Part shown: positions 10,301-16,487 of the stretch, in pieces
Position numbering within the stretch: the first letter of the stretch is position 1
Layout of the letters: each line of letters begins with the position of its first letter
Origin: an uncultured virus (IMG/VR IMGVR_UViG_3300025617_000008)
Taxonomy: Duplodnaviria > Heunggongvirae > Uroviricota > Caudoviricetes
IMG/VR virus record: IMGVR_UViG_3300025617_000008
DNA: 20,000 bases
Reading direction: 5' to 3' (one strand)
Notes under the pieces: model-generated
The model's input: only the letters and a program-made list of their open reading frames with translations
The model's database searches: none
What the model was told of the DNA's origin: nothing
Translations under genes and position numbers: made by a program

Positions 10301-10325
10301 ATAAGTATTAATGGAGTTCCTATAT

Positions 10326-11156
10326 ATGACACAAAGACGAGTAAAATACCTAAATAATAAAGATCTTTTAAAAGAGATCCACAAAAGTAAGAACACTTAC
10401 TGTTCTTACGTTGATAAAGAGCATCATCAGTTTGATATTATCCTACCAAGTTTAGAAAAAATTAACAGACTCACAATTGCAGAAGCAAAACGCAATCAAG
10501 CAAAGCGACTAGCAACTATTGAGTTCGAAAAAGCAAAAGCAGAAAAGCAAAAAGTAGTAGCAAAAGATTTTGAAATTCCCTATCAAAAGATAGATAAAAA
10601 AGACTTAATATTTAGAATTATGACTTTCGAGCATGTTCCGCTTGCTCCGGGTCGTAAGAAAACTGTAAAAACAGTAGCAGACGCACATGAAAGAGTAAAT
10701 TTTCCTCCATTCCAGCATTGGAAATTTGATGAAAACGATAATTTAGTGTGTGTTGGTAAATCACACTGGGTTGGAGGCATGGCTAACGGTTATTTCTCTA
10801 AAACAGACGGTCAAGCAACTAACGAGCTTGCTAAGATGTGGATGAAACTGTGTGAACGGTATGCTACAAGAGGTAATGTTCGCGGATATACTTACAACGA
10901 TGAAATGCGTGGACAAGCAATTTTACAGTTAGCACAAATTGGATTACAATTTGACGAGTCAAAATCACAGAATCCTTTTGCTTATTATACTGCCGCTGTT
11001 ACTAATTCGTTTGTAAGAATTATTAATATCGAAAAACGTAATCAAAATATCCGAGACGATATTCTTGAAATGAACGGCATGAACCCAAGTTGGACTAGAC
11101 AAAACTCTAACGAAGGCACAGGTGTCGATCCCGCTAAAAACGGCGAAAAGAATTAG
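10326..11156 (+). CDS. Late-transcription sigma factor, T4 gp55-like, with large internal insertion
   Basis: YLNNKDLLKEI at the N-terminus and NVRGYTYNDEMRGQAI..FDESKSQNPFAYYT..NSFVRII.IEKR, both gp55 hallmarks. Adjacent to gp47/gp46. Start moved from 10311 to ATG 10326 because GGAG lies at 10313-10316. Confidence 0.85.
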   Translation: MTQRRVKYLNNKDLLKEIHKSKNTYCSYVDKEHHQFDIILPSLEKINRLTIAEAKRNQAKRLATIEFEKAKAEKQKVVAKDFEIPYQKIDKKDLIFRIMTFEHVPLAPGRKKTVKTVADAHERVNFPPFQHWKFDENDNLVCVGKSHWVGGMANGYFSKTDGQATNELAKMWMKLCERYATRGNVRGYTYNDEMRGQAILQLAQIGLQFDESKSQNPFAYYTAAVTNSFVRIINIEKRNQNIRDDILEMNGMNPSWTRQNSNEGTGVDPAKNGEKN

Positions 11157-11204: not shown

Positions 11205-12218
11205 ATGGCGCTATTTAAAAAAGCGGCTTGCTTCACTGATATCCACTTCGGAATGAAGTCTGGCAGTAGACTACACAACAAAGACTGCGAAGATTTTATA
11301 GAATGGTTCATAGAAGAAGCCAAAAAAGAAAATTGTGATACTTGTATATTTTTAGGCGACTGGCACCATAATCGTGCGACTACTGATGTTAGTACGATGA
11401 ACTACAGTGTTAGTAACCTAGAAAAACTTAATAACGCATTTGATAAAACTTATCTTATGCTTGGCAATCACGACGAATTTTACAAAGACAAACGAGAAAT
11501 TCACAGTTTAGAATTTGCTAGACTGTTTCCTAACATTGTTCCCGTGAACAATCCTATTACTGAAGGTGATGTTACACTTCTTCCATGGCTAGTAGGTGAA
11601 GAATGGAAAAAAGTTAAGGATATTAAAAGTAGATATGTTTTTGGACATTTTGAATTACCGTTGTTCTACATGAACGCAATGGTACAGATGCCTGATCACG
11701 GTCAGCTACAGGCTGACGATTTTGTTAACCAAGAGTATGTTTTCTCTGGACATTTTCACAAGCGCCAAACCAAAGGAAACATTACATATATGGGCAATGC
11801 CTTTCCGCACAACTACGCCGATGCGTGGGATGATGACCGCGGAATGATGATGCTTGAATGGGGTGGCAAACCGGAATACCGTAGTTGGCCCGATCAGCCT
11901 CTTTACAGAACAATAAAACTTTCTAAACTTTTAGAAAACCCAGATAATCTTTTAAAAGAAAAGATGCACTGTCGTGTAACAATTGACGTCCCGATCAGTT
12001 TTGAAGAAGCAAACTTTATTAGAGAAACGTTTATGCCGCAGTACAATCTGCGTGAACTTATGCTGATTCCTGAAAAAACTGAAATCGATGGTCAAGATAT
12101 TCAACCTGTTGACTTAAAATTTGAAAGTGTTGATACTATTGTTGTTAATCAAATTACAAATATTGATTCTGAACAGTATGATCAAAAACTTCTATTGGAG
12201 ATCTATAATAACCTATGA
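11205..12218 (+). CDS. Recombination endonuclease subunit, T4 gp47 / Mre11-SbcD metallophosphoesterase family
   Basis: Phosphoesterase motifs DIHFG, GDWHH, GNHD, GHF, SGHFH. Paired with the Rad50-like gene. Confidence 0.93.
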   Translation: MALFKKAACFTDIHFGMKSGSRLHNKDCEDFIEWFIEEAKKENCDTCIFLGDWHHNRATTDVSTMNYSVSNLEKLNNAFDKTYLMLGNHDEFYKDKREIHSLEFARLFPNIVPVNNPITEGDVTLLPWLVGEEWKKVKDIKSRYVFGHFELPLFYMNAMVQMPDHGQLQADDFVNQEYVFSGHFHKRQTKGNITYMGNAFPHNYADAWDDDRGMMMLEWGGKPEYRSWPDQPLYRTIKLSKLLENPDNLLKEKMHCRVTIDVPISFEEANFIRETFMPQYNLRELMLIPEKTEIDGQDIQPVDLKFESVDTIVVNQITNIDSEQYDQKLLLEIYNNL

Positions 12219-13993
12219 TTAAAATTAAAAATCTAACAGTTCGTAATTTCATGAGTGTAGGCAATCAAACTCAAGCAATTGATTTTGATAAAGGTATGCT
12301 AACACTTGTGCTAGGTGAAAACTTAGATCTAGGAGGCGATGACAGTGGTGCTAGAAACGGTACCGGTAAAACAACTATTATCAACAGTCTAAGTTATGCT
12401 ATCTACGGCATCGCATTAACTAACATTAAGAGAGATAATCTAGTTAACAAAATTAACAGCAAAGGTATGCTTGTTACTGTTAGTTTTGAAAAGAATGGGG
12501 TTGCTTATCATATCGAACGTGGTCGCAAACCTAATATTCTCAAGTTAAGTGTTGACGGTGAAGAATACCAAACTGAGGAAGCTGACGAAAGCCAAGGCGA
12601 CAGCAGACAAACACAAAAAGAAATTGAAAAACTGTTCGGCATGAGTCACGACATGTTTAAGCACTTAATTGCTTTAAACACTTATACTGAGCCGTTTCTA
12701 AGTTTAAAAGCAAACGATCAACGTGCTATTATCGAGCAGTTACTAGGTATTACTATTCTAAGTGAAAAAGCAGATGCGTTAAAAGAACAAGTTAGAATTA
12801 GTAAAGATCTTATTCAACAAGAAAACACAAAAATTGAAACTATTAAAGTTAGCAATCAAAAAATTGAAGAGTCTATTCAAAGTTTAGAAAGAAAACAAAA
12901 ACTTTGGCAGGACAACCATAATAGTGCTATTAGTGAACTAGATCAAAGTATTAATATTTTAGAACGCATTAATATTGATGAAGAAGTCGAAGCGCATAAA
13001 TGTCTTGAATCATTTAATGAAAAGAAAAAACGTTTAGAAGAAGCGCAACGCTGGATTGCTAATATTGAAGCAGATAATAGTAAACAAGAAAAAACTATTT
13101 CTAAACTTAATAAAGAAATTTTAATGCTAAAAGAACACAAGTGTCATACTTGTGGACAGGATCTTCACGACAAACAACAAGAAGATATTTTAAACAGCAA
13201 AGAAGAACAAAAACAGGAAGCCGCATTACAGATCTTAGCAAATAACACACAGTGGGATGAACACACTGCTGTTATTAAGGAAGTAGGCGAATTAGAAAGT
13301 TGTCCTCCTACACAATATGATTCATTAGAAGAAGCAGTTAATCATAGAAGTACACTGACAAGTTTACATAAAGAGCTTGAAAATAAAAAAACAGAAATTA
13401 ATCCGTACGAAGAACAGATTGTTGAATTAAAAGAAACTGCTTTACAAGAAATTAATTGGCAAGCGATTAATGACCTTACAAAAGTAAAAGAACATCAGGA
13501 ATTCTTGTATAAACTGCTTACAAACAAAGATAGTTTTGTAAGAAAACGTATTATTGATCAGAATCTAAATTACTTGAATATGCGGTTAACTTATTATCTA
13601 AGCAAGATCGGTTTGCCTCACACAGTTGAATTTCAGAACGATTTAACAGTGGTTATTACACAACTAGGACAGGACTTAGACTTCGATAATCTCAGTAGAG
13701 GTGAACGAAATAGACTCATCTTGTCTATGAGTTGGGCATTCCGTGATGTATGGGAAAGTTTGTATCACAGTATTAATTTACTGTTTATTGACGAACTAGT
13801 AGACAGCGGCATGGACTCAAGTGGAGTTGAATCTAGTATTGCTGTATTAAAGAAAATGACTAGAGAACGTGATAAAAATGTATTCTTAATTTCACACAGA
13901 GATGATTTAGCAACTCGTGTTAATCAAGTTCTTAAAGTTATTAAAGAAAACGGATTTACATCCTATTCAAATGATGTCGAATTGGTGGAATGA
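12215..13993 (+). CDS. Recombination exonuclease ATPase subunit, T4 gp46 / Rad50-SbcC family
   Basis: NFMSVGN, Walker A GARNGTGKT, coiled coil with CHTC zinc hook, signature LSRGE, Walker B LLFIDE, H-loop ISH. ATGA overlap with gp47. Confidence 0.95.
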   Translation: MIKIKNLTVRNFMSVGNQTQAIDFDKGMLTLVLGENLDLGGDDSGARNGTGKTTIINSLSYAIYGIALTNIKRDNLVNKINSKGMLVTVSFEKNGVAYHIERGRKPNILKLSVDGEEYQTEEADESQGDSRQTQKEIEKLFGMSHDMFKHLIALNTYTEPFLSLKANDQRAIIEQLLGITILSEKADALKEQVRISKDLIQQENTKIETIKVSNQKIEESIQSLERKQKLWQDNHNSAISELDQSINILERINIDEEVEAHKCLESFNEKKKRLEEAQRWIANIEADNSKQEKTISKLNKEILMLKEHKCHTCGQDLHDKQQEDILNSKEEQKQEAALQILANNTQWDEHTAVIKEVGELESCPPTQYDSLEEAVNHRSTLTSLHKELENKKTEINPYEEQIVELKETALQEINWQAINDLTKVKEHQEFLYKLLTNKDSFVRKRIIDQNLNYLNMRLTYYLSKIGLPHTVEFQNDLTVVITQLGQDLDFDNLSRGERNRLILSMSWAFRDVWESLYHSINLLFIDELVDSGMDSSGVESSIAVLKKMTRERDKNVFLISHRDDLATRVNQVLKVIKENGFTSYSNDVELVE

Positions 13994-14256
13994 CTACAGA
14001 ATCACATGACAAACTAATCAGAGCATTTCAGGAATACTTTAAATGGCAAGATAAGTTTGAGTATAGTGGTTCAGATGCCGCAGGCATTAAAGCAAGGTAT
14101 TGGTTAAGTGAAATTAGAAACTTTTCTAGTATCAGAAGAAACGAAATACAGGCAAAAAGACAAGATCGTAAGGCAACCAGAAAAGGCATTGTAGGTAGAC
14201 CAAAGAAAGTAAGTAGTGTTGATGAAGACAAACCCAACATGGACTTACCAGAATAA
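13990..14256 (+). CDS. Small basic protein, histone H1-like Hc1-family-like nucleic-acid-binding protein
   Basis: KFEYSGSDAAGIKARYWLSEI....RRNEIQ resembles the Hc1 pattern KFE.GNKAAGTRARK.L.E....RKEIQ; basic tail with GRPKK. ATGA-coupled to gp46. Confidence 0.55.
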   Translation: MTTESHDKLIRAFQEYFKWQDKFEYSGSDAAGIKARYWLSEIRNFSSIRRNEIQAKRQDRKATRKGIVGRPKKVSSVDEDKPNMDLPE

Positions 14257-14683
14257 ACCTTTAGATTCTATTCCAGACGAATATGAAGGGTTTGTTTACC
14301 TAATCACAAACACAACTACTGGGCAAAAGTACGTAGGCAAAAAACTAGCCAAATTTAAAACTACTAAACCGCCACTCAAAGGCAAAAAGAATAAACGCAG
14401 AGGCACAAAAGAAAGCGATTGGAAGGACTATTGGGGTTCATCTGATAGATTAAACGCTGACGTTGAAGCACTAGGCCCAGAAAACTTCACAAGAGAAATA
14501 CTATACCTATGTAAAGGTAGGGGCGAAATGTCCTATATCGAGGCAAGAGAACAGTTTGACCGCCGTGTATTAGAAAGAGATGATTATTACAACGGTATTA
14601 TTAATGTTAGAGTTGGTGGTTCAGACAAGTTACGACAGGCATTGCTAGAACATAGCATCAAGGCAAAGCAATCCAACACATAA
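14222..14683 (+). CDS. Stand-alone GIY-YIG family (Seg-like) nuclease
   Basis: GFVYLITNTTTGQKYVGKK (GIY...YIG), YWGSS, ENFTREIL, candidate catalytic Glu in YIEAREQ and Asn in YYNG. ATG 14222 is preferred over TTG 14216; overlaps the upstream gene by 35 nt. Confidence 0.8.
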   Translation: MKTNPTWTYQNKPLDSIPDEYEGFVYLITNTTTGQKYVGKKLAKFKTTKPPLKGKKNKRRGTKESDWKDYWGSSDRLNADVEALGPENFTREILYLCKGRGEMSYIEAREQFDRRVLERDDYYNGIINVRVGGSDKLRQALLEHSIKAKQSNT

Positions 14684-15107
14684 GGTTGGCGGGCCAGTTT
14701 AGAAATACCGCTGTGGAAAAAGTCTCCGAATAGGAACACACGTACACGTTGATCAACACACCAGAGTGTGGAAGCCATCAAACAAATTGGGCTCACCGGT
14801 TGACGTAGATAGAATGTTGGCTGTCGAAAAACTGTATATTACACATAAAAACTCCTTAGCACTAGGAACGAGGCGGGAGGTAGAAATATAGTGTATTAGC
14901 TATAATTTAGAATTATTGCTTATAAGCTATATTTTGATGTCGACGTAGGTTGGGAAAGGTCAGAGCCCATTGTGTAGCAGTATAACAAACACCTACTTCC
15001 AAGTCTCGGCTGTGACGGACTCACATAAAGTCAAGATTAGATGGAACCCTTAAACAGGTTCCGTCTGACTGAAACAATCTACATAAAGCTAAAATTGCTT
15101 CGCAATT
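14684..15107 (+). ncRNA. Putative large structured non-coding RNA (family not recognised)
   Basis: No credible ORF. Many helices, several with G-U pairs on the plus strand: GGCGG/CCGCT, TTGAT/ATCAA enclosing CACAC/GTGTG, TGGGCTC/GAGCCCA, GTAGAT/ATCTAC, CGAGGC-GGAGGTAG/CTACTTCC-GTCTCG, AAATATAG/CTATATTT, TTAGATGGAACC/GGTTCCGTCTGA. Boundaries approximate. Confidence 0.6.
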
Positions 15108-15124
15108 ATTATATTGTATAAATA
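15102..15124 (+). promoter_or_regulatory. Late promoter TATAAATA (15117-15124) with upstream GCAATTAT
   Basis: Exact T4 late consensus; GC-containing octamer 9 nt upstream of TAAATA. Confidence 0.6.
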
Positions 15125-15139
15125 TCTATAATAAAAAAA

Positions 15140-15185
15140 TGTGTTTGAGCGATAGCGATAAACACAAGTGAGCTTTAGCTCACTT
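15140..15185. repeat. Two adjacent inverted repeats (TGTGTTT/AAACACA and AAGTGAGC/GCTCACTT)
   Basis: 15140-15146 pairs with 15160-15166 (loop contains AGCGAT twice); 15166-15173 pairs with 15178-15185. Confidence 0.75.
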
Positions 15186-15201
15186 ATTAGTGTTATAAAT
15201 A
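15178..15201 (+). promoter_or_regulatory. Late promoter TATAAATA (15194-15201)
   Basis: Exact T4 late consensus 21 nt before the ATG at 15222. Confidence 0.7.
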
Positions 15202-15221
15202 AGAGATCTTGAGATAGTAAA

Positions 15222-16487
15222 ATGAAATTAAATCAATTAGAAAACATCACACATTTAGATGAAGCACCACAAGGCATGTTTAAAAGAGCTGGCTTAAAAG
15301 CAAAATCAGCTTTTGGAAGTGATGTTGCTAAAGGACAACTTCAATCAGGTGACACAGCAAATAAACTAAAAAAAGAATATATGCAGTTTGTAGGCCGAAT
15401 GGCTGATAAAGTTGGAACAACAAATCCAACAACAGATACACTGCTTGCGTTTCTCAAGAGCAAAGGTGTTGATACTAAGGCAGTTGCTTCATTAATCGAT
15501 AAAGAATTACAAGCACTAGCACCACAAAAGCAAGAACCAGTTTCAACTGAACCTCCAGCTGATGCTGTTAAAAACGAGCCAGTGGCACAAACTTCAACAG
15601 ATCCAAACAATCCTCTTAAACCTGGTAACAATACAGCAAACATGAAGCAGGCTAGTTTAGATCTAGACGATCCTAACAGTTCACAAGGCGATCTATTTAA
15701 AAATAATCCTATTCCAAGTATGGCTCCTAAAACACCAGCTGTTAAAAAGCCCGTCGGTCGTACACAGGGTGGCGGGAAAGTCGCAGGTAAGTTAAGTCAA
15801 ACGCCCGGTGCTATAGCAAAGAGAAATGCTAGAGCAAAAGCAAACAAACAACTACAGTTAATGTCAATGTATAGCGAAGACGCACAACGCTATAGAAAAA
15901 ACTTTGAAAAAATTAACTGGGATCTAAAAGAAGATCAAGATTATTTTAACGCACTAAAATTTATGGGTGTTATGGAAGCTGAAATTCCAACAAAAGTATT
16001 AGATAAGGTATTAAACAATGTAGCCGCAGATTTAACAGATCCGGCAGCCGCCGATGTTAGTACACCACAAGATGCGCAAGCAGGCGATCAACAGTCAGAT
16101 ACTGATAGCACTGGCACACAACAAAAAGGCGATGGTGTTTTAAAAGGTATAGGTAAAGCTATAGGTGGTGTTGTTGGCAAAGCAGTAGGCGGCGTTAAGT
16201 CTGGTCTAGGTGACAATCCAGAAGCAAAACCAGGCAGTAAGATTTTTGATCCTGATGAAGAAGATGGGGAAGTAAGAGGTACTCTAAATTATCAGAATAT
16301 TTCTAAACAGTTCCCTGGTATAGATCCAACAATGCTTAGAAGAAGCATGTCTAAAAGTTTACAAGGTCAAGATTTAACCAAAGCTGAACATGAAACAATG
16401 TCTGCGGCAATGACCCAACTGCTTAAGAAAGATCCACAACAAACAGTTAAAGTAATGAACTTGTTTAAACAAGCAAAAGAAGTTTAA
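15222..16487 (+). CDS. Hypothetical late protein, possibly an internal head protein
   Basis: 421 aa, Ala/Pro/Lys/Gln-rich and low complexity, behind two TATAAATA boxes. N-terminal MKLNQLE..HLDEA carries an L-x-E site like T4 gp21 protease targets. Confidence 0.6.
   Translation: MKLNQLENITHLDEAPQGMFKRAGLKAKSAFGSDVAKGQLQSGDTANKLKKEYMQFVGRMADKVGTTNPTTDTLLAFLKSKGVDTKAVASLIDKELQALAPQKQEPVSTEPPADAVKNEPVAQTSTDPNNPLKPGNNTANMKQASLDLDDPNSSQGDLFKNNPIPSMAPKTPAVKKPVGRTQGGGKVAGKLSQTPGAIAKRNARAKANKQLQLMSMYSEDAQRYRKNFEKINWDLKEDQDYFNALKFMGVMEAEIPTKVLDKVLNNVAADLTDPAAADVSTPQDAQAGDQQSDTDSTGTQQKGDGVLKGIGKAIGGVVGKAVGGVKSGLGDNPEAKPGSKIFDPDEEDGEVRGTLNYQNISKQFPGIDPTMLRRSMSKSLQGQDLTKAEHETMSAAMTQLLKKDPQQTVKVMNLFKQAKEV

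Follow-up and report, generated by a model that had tools for sequence, protein, structure and literature searches.

Few large RNAs with an elaborate fold and no assigned function are on record, and every one of them has so far brought new biology to light. Among them, GOLLD, ROOL, OLE and HEARO were found by comparative analysis, and their large size, many helices, pseudoknots and phage association are shared by the RNA described here, which is located near positions 14673-15107 on the plus strand of a 20,000-nucleotide (nt) stretch of DNA (referred to as the window), a fragment of an uncultured marine T4-like myovirus (IMGVR_UViG_3300025617_000008). The window RNA differs from these four in its smaller size (~430 nt), in not standing beside tRNA genes, and in carrying a module of two matched direct repeats. 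A second group for comparison is the bacterial small RNAs derived from 3' untranslated regions (3'-UTRs), which likewise lie at the 3' end of an operon, overlap with the end of the upstream open reading frame (ORF) and finish with a terminal hairpin. The window RNA is, however, four to ten times longer than these, and it is tertiary-type structure that is conserved and not a seed region.

A third system is the preprimer of plasmid replication. Masukata and Tomizawa are said to have found in 1990 that an upstream segment of ColE1 RNA II pairs with the template DNA strand downstream. In phage T4, the origins consist of a middle promoter and an unwinding element and are not known to involve a large RNA fold, and the transcripts of oriF and oriG work in part by R-loop priming. 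We know of no replication origin in the marine T4-like phages, which to our knowledge lack the middle-promoter system of T4.

As shown below, the window RNA is also related by position to Polynucleobacter-1 (RF01718), a motif of 141 nt derived from 16 sequences of Burkholderiales and of fresh water or estuary, for which the original report gives no function (PMC2864571). In the literature searched, neither a mention of Polynucleobacter-1 beyond that report nor a published description of the window RNA was found. New here are a tested fold with two pseudoknots, the link to Polynucleobacter-1, the synteny that rules out a mobile cassette, and the matched direct repeats.

Covariation among homologues of the RNA

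Homologues were collected by a search with the protein of the neighbouring nuclease gene, giving more than 600 stretches, and by a search with an 18-nt core motif of the RNA, giving at least 120 stretches of IMG/VR. Among 235 loci, nhmmer detected 164 full-length and 58 partial matches. A total of 106 distinct full-length homologues, 64-91% identical to the window, constitute the alignment (A1) to which the pairing and covariation figures below refer. The exact 32-mer of the hairpin at 15037-68 is present in 26 IMG/VR contigs, the flanks of which are only 70-87% identical.

Helices pointed to by a scan of all column pairs and by mutual-information ranking were scored pair by pair on this alignment. 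The revised model thus obtained includes 78 pairs in 16 helix segments, with 93.9% of the cells paired and compensatory changes in 42 of the 78 pairs. Cells with double changes numbered 785, as against 232.8 +/- 14.2 in shuffles. The covariation score was 0.289 compared with 0.140 in shuffles, none of 500 shuffles reaching the observed value, and it fell to 0.04-0.06 when the partners were slid by 1-3 columns. The top column pairs in mutual information are Watson-Crick partners.

The folding energy of the plus strand was somewhat better than that of shuffles (z -2.08, 4 of 100 as good), and that of the minus strand gave z -0.85 (17 of 100 as good). G-U pairs are abundant on the plus strand, such as UG at columns 92/173 in 93 sequences and GU at columns 93/172 in 99. 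Since these common G-U pairs would be A-C mismatches on the other strand, the RNA is assigned to the plus strand. A preliminary description of the window, made from its letters alone, had proposed that this strand encodes an ornate RNA of some 400 nt with a pseudoknot, and both the covariation and the G-U signal bear this out. Its left boundary at 14684 was set ~10 nt or more too far to the right, because the segment 14673-78, within the nuclease ORF, is a paired strand and the RNA hence starts upstream of 14684. We conclude that the window encodes, at ~14673-15107 (+), a genuine, compactly folded and doubly pseudoknotted RNA of ~430 nt.

Helices and pseudoknots

The first pseudoknot (PK1) is formed between CCAACA at 14673-78, in the last codons of the nuclease ORF, and the loop of hairpin P5 at 14815-20. 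Its 6 pairs are 99.7% paired and 4 are compensatory (for example, CG in 77 and AU in 25 sequences; AU in 78 and GC in 27). The second is formed by helix P9 (GTAGGT/ACCTAC, 14945-50/14991-96), which crosses the long-range helix P6 (14840-45/14971-76). P9 is 99.4% paired with 2 compensatory pairs (UA 102 and GC 4; GC 90, GU 15 and AU 1). The inner 5 pairs of P6 are 98.3% paired and all compensatory (GC 76 and AU 27; UA 74 and CG 29; AU 68 and UA 35), and its outer extension at 14832-34/14978-80 is weak, being 61% paired. A pseudoknot had thus been anticipated correctly, although the helix originally drawn for it, 14788/14958, is unsupported.

On the 5' side, the hairpin P1 (GGCGG/CCGCT, 14688-92/14708-12) is 99.1% paired with 2 compensatory pairs. 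It is followed by P2a (GTG/CAC, 14713-15/14739-41; one pair UA in 88 and AU in 18 sequences), which encloses the hairpin P2 (14722-27/14733-37, compensatory change in 5 of 5 pairs). Five of the 9 pairs of P3 (14746-54/14798-806) are compensatory (UA 70 and CG 36; AU 66 and GC 38). P3 encloses the hairpin P4 (14757-61/14766-70, 4 of 5 pairs compensatory) and an optional but conserved insert of 27 nt (14771-97), which is lacking in ~40 of the 106 sequences. All 5 pairs of hairpin P5 (14808-12/14821-25) are compensatory, with 98.5% pairing.

In the centre, the hairpin P7 (CTCC/GGAG, 14852-55/14876-79; 97.8% paired, 3 of 4 pairs compensatory) carries the loop motif GGAACGA (14865-71), invariant in 106 of 106 sequences. 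The hairpin insert P8 (14884-14935) ranges from ~0 to more than 100 nt among homologues, and its paired columns 14887/14931 and 14888/14930 covary. The hairpin P10 (14951-54/14966-69), enclosed by P9 and with the invariant loop AAAGGTCAGAG, is nearly invariant and so beyond covariation testing, a U-A to C-G change being seen in an alignment for locus L158.

The 3' part begins with the weak helix P11 (15011-15/15021-25), followed by P12 (15037-48/15057-68), a 12-bp hairpin that is the most conserved element of all (93.2% paired, G-U changes in 7 pairs, one compensatory pair). The hairpin AATTGC-TTC-GCAATT at 15093-15107 is probably the 3' end of the RNA. An AT-rich stretch follows, directly after the second copy of the direct repeat, and the GC content drops to 0.25 over 15100-15249.

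Three of the nine helices drawn in the preliminary description, now P1, P4 (CACAC/GTGTG) and P12, are retained in this model. Two others are weak or partial: TGTGA/TCACA (P11) is 81.2% paired, and the hairpin AATTGC/GCAATT recurs at its place with differing sequence between phages, its columns remaining unaligned (48%). The remaining four lack covariation support or compete with supported helices. TTGAT/ATCAA is 80% paired without a compensatory pair. GTAGAT/ATCTAC, 85% paired and again with 0 compensatory pairs, overlaps the strongly covarying P3 and P5. CGAGGC.GGAGGTAG/CTACTTCC..GTCTCG (77-81%) overlaps P7 and P9, and one of its pairs is formed in only 14 of 106 sequences. TGGGCTC-ACC/GGT..GAGCCCA is 77-78% paired; covariation has no bearing on it, the 3' strand being invariant, and with its 5' strand in the optional insert it is an accessory contact at most. 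In sum, the long-range helices particular to that model showed 0-2 compensatory pairs each and 77-85% pairing, on strands that covary with other partners. The model as a whole (82.8% paired, covariation 0.106 versus 0.083 in shuffles) draws its support from the helices common to both models.

Besides these structural features, a contig end lies inside the ~420-nt RNA in 24 of 80 nuclease-anchored loci (L036-L115), as compared with a few per cent estimated by chance. These ends fall at three hypervariable segments (~14757-72, 14827-50 and 14866-83), which are flanked by invariant sequence. Such an arrangement usually underlies assembly breaks among mixed strains, which are the likely cause of this clustering, physical genome ends being less likely.

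Matched direct repeats on both sides of P12

P12 is flanked by two copies of a direct repeat on the plus strand, ACTCACATAAAG at 15019-30 and, 58 nt from it, ATCTACATAAAG at 15077-88. The two copies change in parallel between phages, keeping identical rather than complementary letters. Among the 106 sequences, 20 haplotype combinations of the two copies were detected, the variants of the motif including ACATGAAG, ACATAAAG, ACATAATG, ACATGATG and ACGTGAAG and, further, GCATGAAG, ACAGGAAA, GTATGAAG and ACATGAGG. The same letter is always found in both copies at 15023/15081, 15025/15083 and 15027/15085 (normalised mutual information 1.00 each) and nearly always at 15029/15087 (0.77), and the inner variable positions are identical between the copies in 101 of the 106 sequences. 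On a tree built without the repeat columns, the counts of changes were 2/2, 4/4, 6/6 and 8/10, and 13 of 13 independent contrasts agreed.

A matched pair at 51-61 nt is also present in other forms of the RNA, described below, each with a motif sequence of its own: in the Polynucleobacter-1 form of L004 (AGATGATG), and in the third form of L112 as well as in L149 (ATCATCAAGT), L158 and L126.

A complementary partner of the repeats was not found at any of three levels: mutual-information ranking gave no covarying partner inside the RNA, the reverse complement of the motif was absent from the 60 loci examined, and no complementary partner was shared among five records of 115-169 kb, which contained only the repeats themselves and two scattered matches in one record. 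Two further candidates were rejected. Palindrome pairing between the two repeats fails for the sequence of the window itself, and the frames of small ORFs starting from an ATG inside the repeats are not kept but shifted by changes in loop length (by eye).

The wider motif ACAU(A/G)A(A/G)(A/G) is seen four times in the RNA (14679-85, 14842-49, 15022-30 and 15080-88), each time right after a helix strand ending in ACA, and only the last two copies change together.

Modular bodies and the link to Polynucleobacter-1

No Rfam model exists for the family of this RNA, which lies directly 3' of a row of genes made up of gp47, gp46, an 88-amino-acid (aa) ORF and the nuclease. Rfam gave no match at the gathering score over the whole window and none at E up to 10 over 13900-15400, including RNase P RNA, and the models of GOLLD, ROOL, OLE, HEARO and raiA gave none either. 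A group I intron likewise had no Rfam match; stop codons are present in all downstream frames, and the flanks are separate syntenic genes. ARAGORN detected 0 tRNA or tmRNA genes in the window. The earlier statement that the RNA is not a tRNA, tmRNA, RNase P or group I/II intron is in agreement with these results. By eye, GGGAAAGGUC resembles what we take to be conserved region I of RNase P, and a hammerhead-like CUGA..GAAA was also noticed by eye, which misfits the consensus and has no Rfam match.

The body of the RNA is made of modules that are exchanged among related phages, namely the 5' domain, the P8 insert and in some cases the entire core. L121 and L126 carry a 5' domain of a second type. 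Behind the same nuclease gene, L003-L006 have a different body in the slot, the 5' part of which is Polynucleobacter-1. In L004 (3467-3608), the first 141 nt of a phage RNA of ~470 nt scored 67.4 bits against RF01718 (gathering score 37, E 4e-14). A third body occupies the slot in L112 and L113. In L149 and L158, the window-type core is found in another phage type without a nuclease gene upstream, indicating that the RNA does not depend on the nuclease. In L158, a promoter-like site (TTGACA-17-TATAAT, by eye) on the minus strand ~190 nt upstream of the RNA precedes a 65-aa ORF (MATITRQEILKAK...) that extends into the RNA at its 5' side.

What is kept in most forms examined is the 3' module, consisting of motif copy 1, a hairpin, copy 2 located 51-68 nt later, a hairpin and AT-rich DNA. 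The Polynucleobacter-1 form shares with the window RNA the slot, this 3' module with its matched direct repeats and hairpins, and the downstream elements, and the loops of the first hairpins are similar by eye (GCCAGUU versus GCGCAGUU). In contrast, the order of helices differs, and the window RNA stays below the gathering score of RF01718 (37 bits), with no match to it even at E up to 10. A strong Rfam match had been named as evidence against the novelty of the RNA; the window itself gave none, and the sister RNA in the same slot does carry a known motif.

The locus and its phage

In the window, the gene for a gp55-type late sigma factor (10311-11156) is followed by gp47/SbcD (11205-12218), gp46/SbcC (12215-13993), the 88-aa ORF (13990-14256) and a SegE-like GIY-YIG nuclease of 155 aa (14216-14683, plus strand; Pfam PF19835, E 9.3e-36), the last codons of which overlap the 5' end of the RNA. 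Downstream are the gene for a 421-aa protein of no known family (15222-16487) and, 3' of it, the baseplate genes. The noncoding gap of 538 nt (14684-15221), without any ORF of 60 aa or more, is the longest by far between same-direction genes, the other such junctions in the window being 55 nt or less or overlapping; that a gap of this length is unusual here had been noted at first sight.

The order of gp46, the 88-aa ORF, the SegE-like gene, the RNA and the baseplate module is conserved among uncultured marine T4-like myoviruses. By tblastn, the SegE-like nuclease follows gp46 and the 88-aa ORF in syntenic loci with 66-100% aa identity. Only the downstream 421-aa gene varies between loci, being present or absent, and the order of gp46, 88-aa ORF and nuclease is constant in the loci that reach that far. 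In L011-type loci, the gene 3' of the RNA is convergent. A mobile cassette, in which the nuclease and the RNA move together, had first been suggested by BLAST and was ruled out by the synteny in tblastn. The nuclease gene is short (155 aa), lacks an extra DNA-binding domain, and diverges in step with gp46; given this and the synteny, it looks like a resident gene and not a roaming, free-standing homing endonuclease. Its product, we presume, could be a nuclease for host DNA like T4 EndoII. A sequence search of PDB with the nuclease gave no match, and the 421-aa protein had no match in Pfam, PHROG or NCBIfam; homologues of the latter in related phages are 46-73% identical, and others lack it at this locus.

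A blastn search of 14600-15250 against 50,697 phage records found nothing, and gp46 is less than 50% identical to its best matches in cultured phages, jumbo phages such as PA5oct. Five related IMG/VR records (G002-G006, behind L030, L047, L053, L085 and L097) are 115-169 kb long at a CheckV completeness of 31-47%, which suggests a jumbo genome of ~350 kb for the clade. The phages that carry the RNA are uncultured marine T4-like myoviruses and probably jumbo. In 185,579 cellular genomes, the 18-nt core motif had 27 matches, about the number estimated by chance; 3 of them are real, all on phage-like contigs within metagenome-assembled genomes and with the same synteny. Assembled contigs of four metatranscriptome runs gave low-depth coverage of the nuclease gene, of the flanks and of parts of the RNA, without showing ends, strand or level.

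A second conserved noncoding element was observed ~35 nt after the large RNA, at 15141-15185. It consists of a hairpin, GTGTTT (15141-46)/AAACAC (15160-65), with the conserved loop GAGCGnnAGCGA, followed by a terminator-like hairpin (15166-85), the sequence of which covaries between phages. Of the 262 loci collected, 112 have the loop motif, in every case a short way 3' of the RNA. The element is preceded by TATAAATA at 15117 and may be a separate small late RNA. A further TATAAATA at 15194-15201 lies 21 nt upstream of the start codon of the 421-aa gene. We take TATAAATA to be the late-promoter consensus of T4.

Possible functions of the RNA

Since the two repeat copies are identical and not complementary, the template DNA strand at copy 2 is exactly complementary to copy 1 in the RNA. 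The explanation placed first, possible though short of probable, is that the RNA acts in cis on its own DNA: copy 1 of the transcript would base-pair with this strand to give an R-loop or primer like that of ColE1. The likeness is to ColE1 RNA II and its scheme of a persistent hybrid and RNase H (PMC4555960). Both are long transcripts, that of ColE1 needing a correct fold, and the two identical copies followed by AT-rich DNA would here allow the same pairing. The window RNA is, however, far more knotted and has a hairpin after the second copy, and a role at an origin would be assigned to it by analogy. In such a scheme, copy 2 would be opened by the polymerase immediately after passing the P12 hairpin. 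The folded body of the RNA would offer copy 1 to the template strand there, and a lasting RNA-DNA hybrid, bordering on the AT-rich stretch, would anchor the transcript. The R-loop could then be cut to prime leading-strand DNA synthesis, and the locus would be an early replication origin with a preprimer that needs a precise fold. The repeats, the spacing of P12, which stands 12 nt upstream of the ACAT core of copy 2 and 8 nt upstream of 15077, the AT-rich DNA after copy 2, and the location at the end of an operon for early or middle DNA metabolism fit the idea of an R-loop in cis. Also in its favour are the matched pairs in other forms of the RNA, the failure to find a third, complementary partner in the loci and records searched, the occurrence of the RNA in L149 and L158 without the nuclease gene, in L158 behind a promoter-like site, and the use of R-loop origins by T4. 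A direct repeat that is kept identical, so that the upstream RNA can pair with the downstream template, is expected of a preprimer and was found in 101 of 106 sequences. A wider picture, in which this is an RNA-built origin of a large marine phage, the ornate pseudoknotted preprimer would lock the R-loop and the swappable bodies would represent alternative solutions, is doubtful at present.

A number of points weigh against the R-loop. The R-loop origins of T4 are not known to need a large folded RNA, the 8-12 nt of repeat identity are short, and the hairpin after copy 2 looks more like the 3' end of an RNA than a part of a read-through primer. As to the repeats themselves, 5 of the 106 sequences differ at an inner position, and for L113 and L121 the repeat search called no pair. 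The two copies might be transferred jointly by recombination, which makes the 13 contrasts an upper bound and not strictly independent; even so, the distinct matched haplotypes, in 20 combinations, call for many mirrored substitutions. At a completeness of 31-47% in the records searched for a partner in trans, a distant partner may exist. The metatranscriptome material consists of assembled contigs that show neither ends nor levels, and the presence in one slot of three bodies that look unrelated would suit a scaffold or sensor as well as a preprimer.

A second possibility, also well short of probable, is a free-standing, trans-acting RNA of the kind of GOLLD, ROOL and OLE, that is, a scaffold, sponge or particle, perhaps oligomeric or protein-bound, in which one partner, either a dimeric protein or a nucleic acid, would dock at both of the identical motifs. 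The size, the two pseudoknots, the invariant loops (GGAACGA and AAAGGTCAGAG) and the strong covariation resemble those of large phage-associated RNAs, which reportedly form RNA-only assemblies (PMC12286853). That another type of phage has the RNA but no nuclease gene beside it agrees with this view, and the hairpins at both ends would stabilise a processed RNA. However, no family of this kind was matched in Rfam, the specificity of a protein partner would need to change about as often as the motif does, through 20 haplotype combinations, and no complementary nucleic-acid partner was found nearby or in the five large records.

It is rather unlikely that the RNA is a cis-acting 3'-UTR element of the upstream operon, controlling mRNA stability, termination or read-through to the late genes, possibly as a ligand-sensing switch, with the repeats as parts of two alternative terminator or processing modules. 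The RNA is always located at the 3' end of the gene row and overlaps the last codons of the upstream ORF, a hairpin follows each repeat copy, and TATAAATA motifs lie downstream at 15117 and 15194. Moreover, Weinberg et al. 2010, who discovered Polynucleobacter-1, entered 'cis-reg: y' for this sister motif in their table (PMC2864571). In L011-type loci, however, the next gene is convergent and there is nothing downstream to regulate. Furthermore, 430 nt and two pseudoknots far exceed the needs of known stabilisers or terminators, and no alternative pairing of the repeats was found.

A self-processing ribozyme that excises itself from the operon transcript, the recurring ACAU motifs being cleavage or ligation sites of one active site, is unlikely. 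One active site reading the motifs would account for their forced match, ribozymes typically have a core with a pseudoknot and invariant unpaired nucleotides, and each of the four ACAU motifs stands beside a helix end, but the 5' motif and that at 14842 do not covary with the two 3' copies. Neither a match to an Rfam self-cleaving or intron family, even at E up to 10, nor an internal guide covarying with the motifs was found. That the RNA is the guide or partner RNA of the adjacent GIY-YIG nuclease in an RNA-directed nuclease system is very improbable: it does begin in the tail of the nuclease gene, as do the omega RNAs of TnpB and IscB, and adjoins the nuclease in nearly all loci, but its core stands without the nuclease in L149 and L158, the nuclease is also paired with two other RNA bodies, the locus is syntenic and not mobile, and neither the obligate pairing with a nuclease nor the variable guide segment at one end that mark omega-RNA types was found.

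Whichever of these readings is adopted, the core motif recurs in at least 120 IMG/VR contigs, and the orphan Rfam motif Polynucleobacter-1 now has a connection to a larger RNA of modular build, which occupies a constant place in phage genomes. Two segments that are kept identical and not complementary represent an unusual signal, pointing to a testable mechanism. If it holds, the proposed RNA-DNA pairing would both place and account for an origin of replication in marine T4-like phages.

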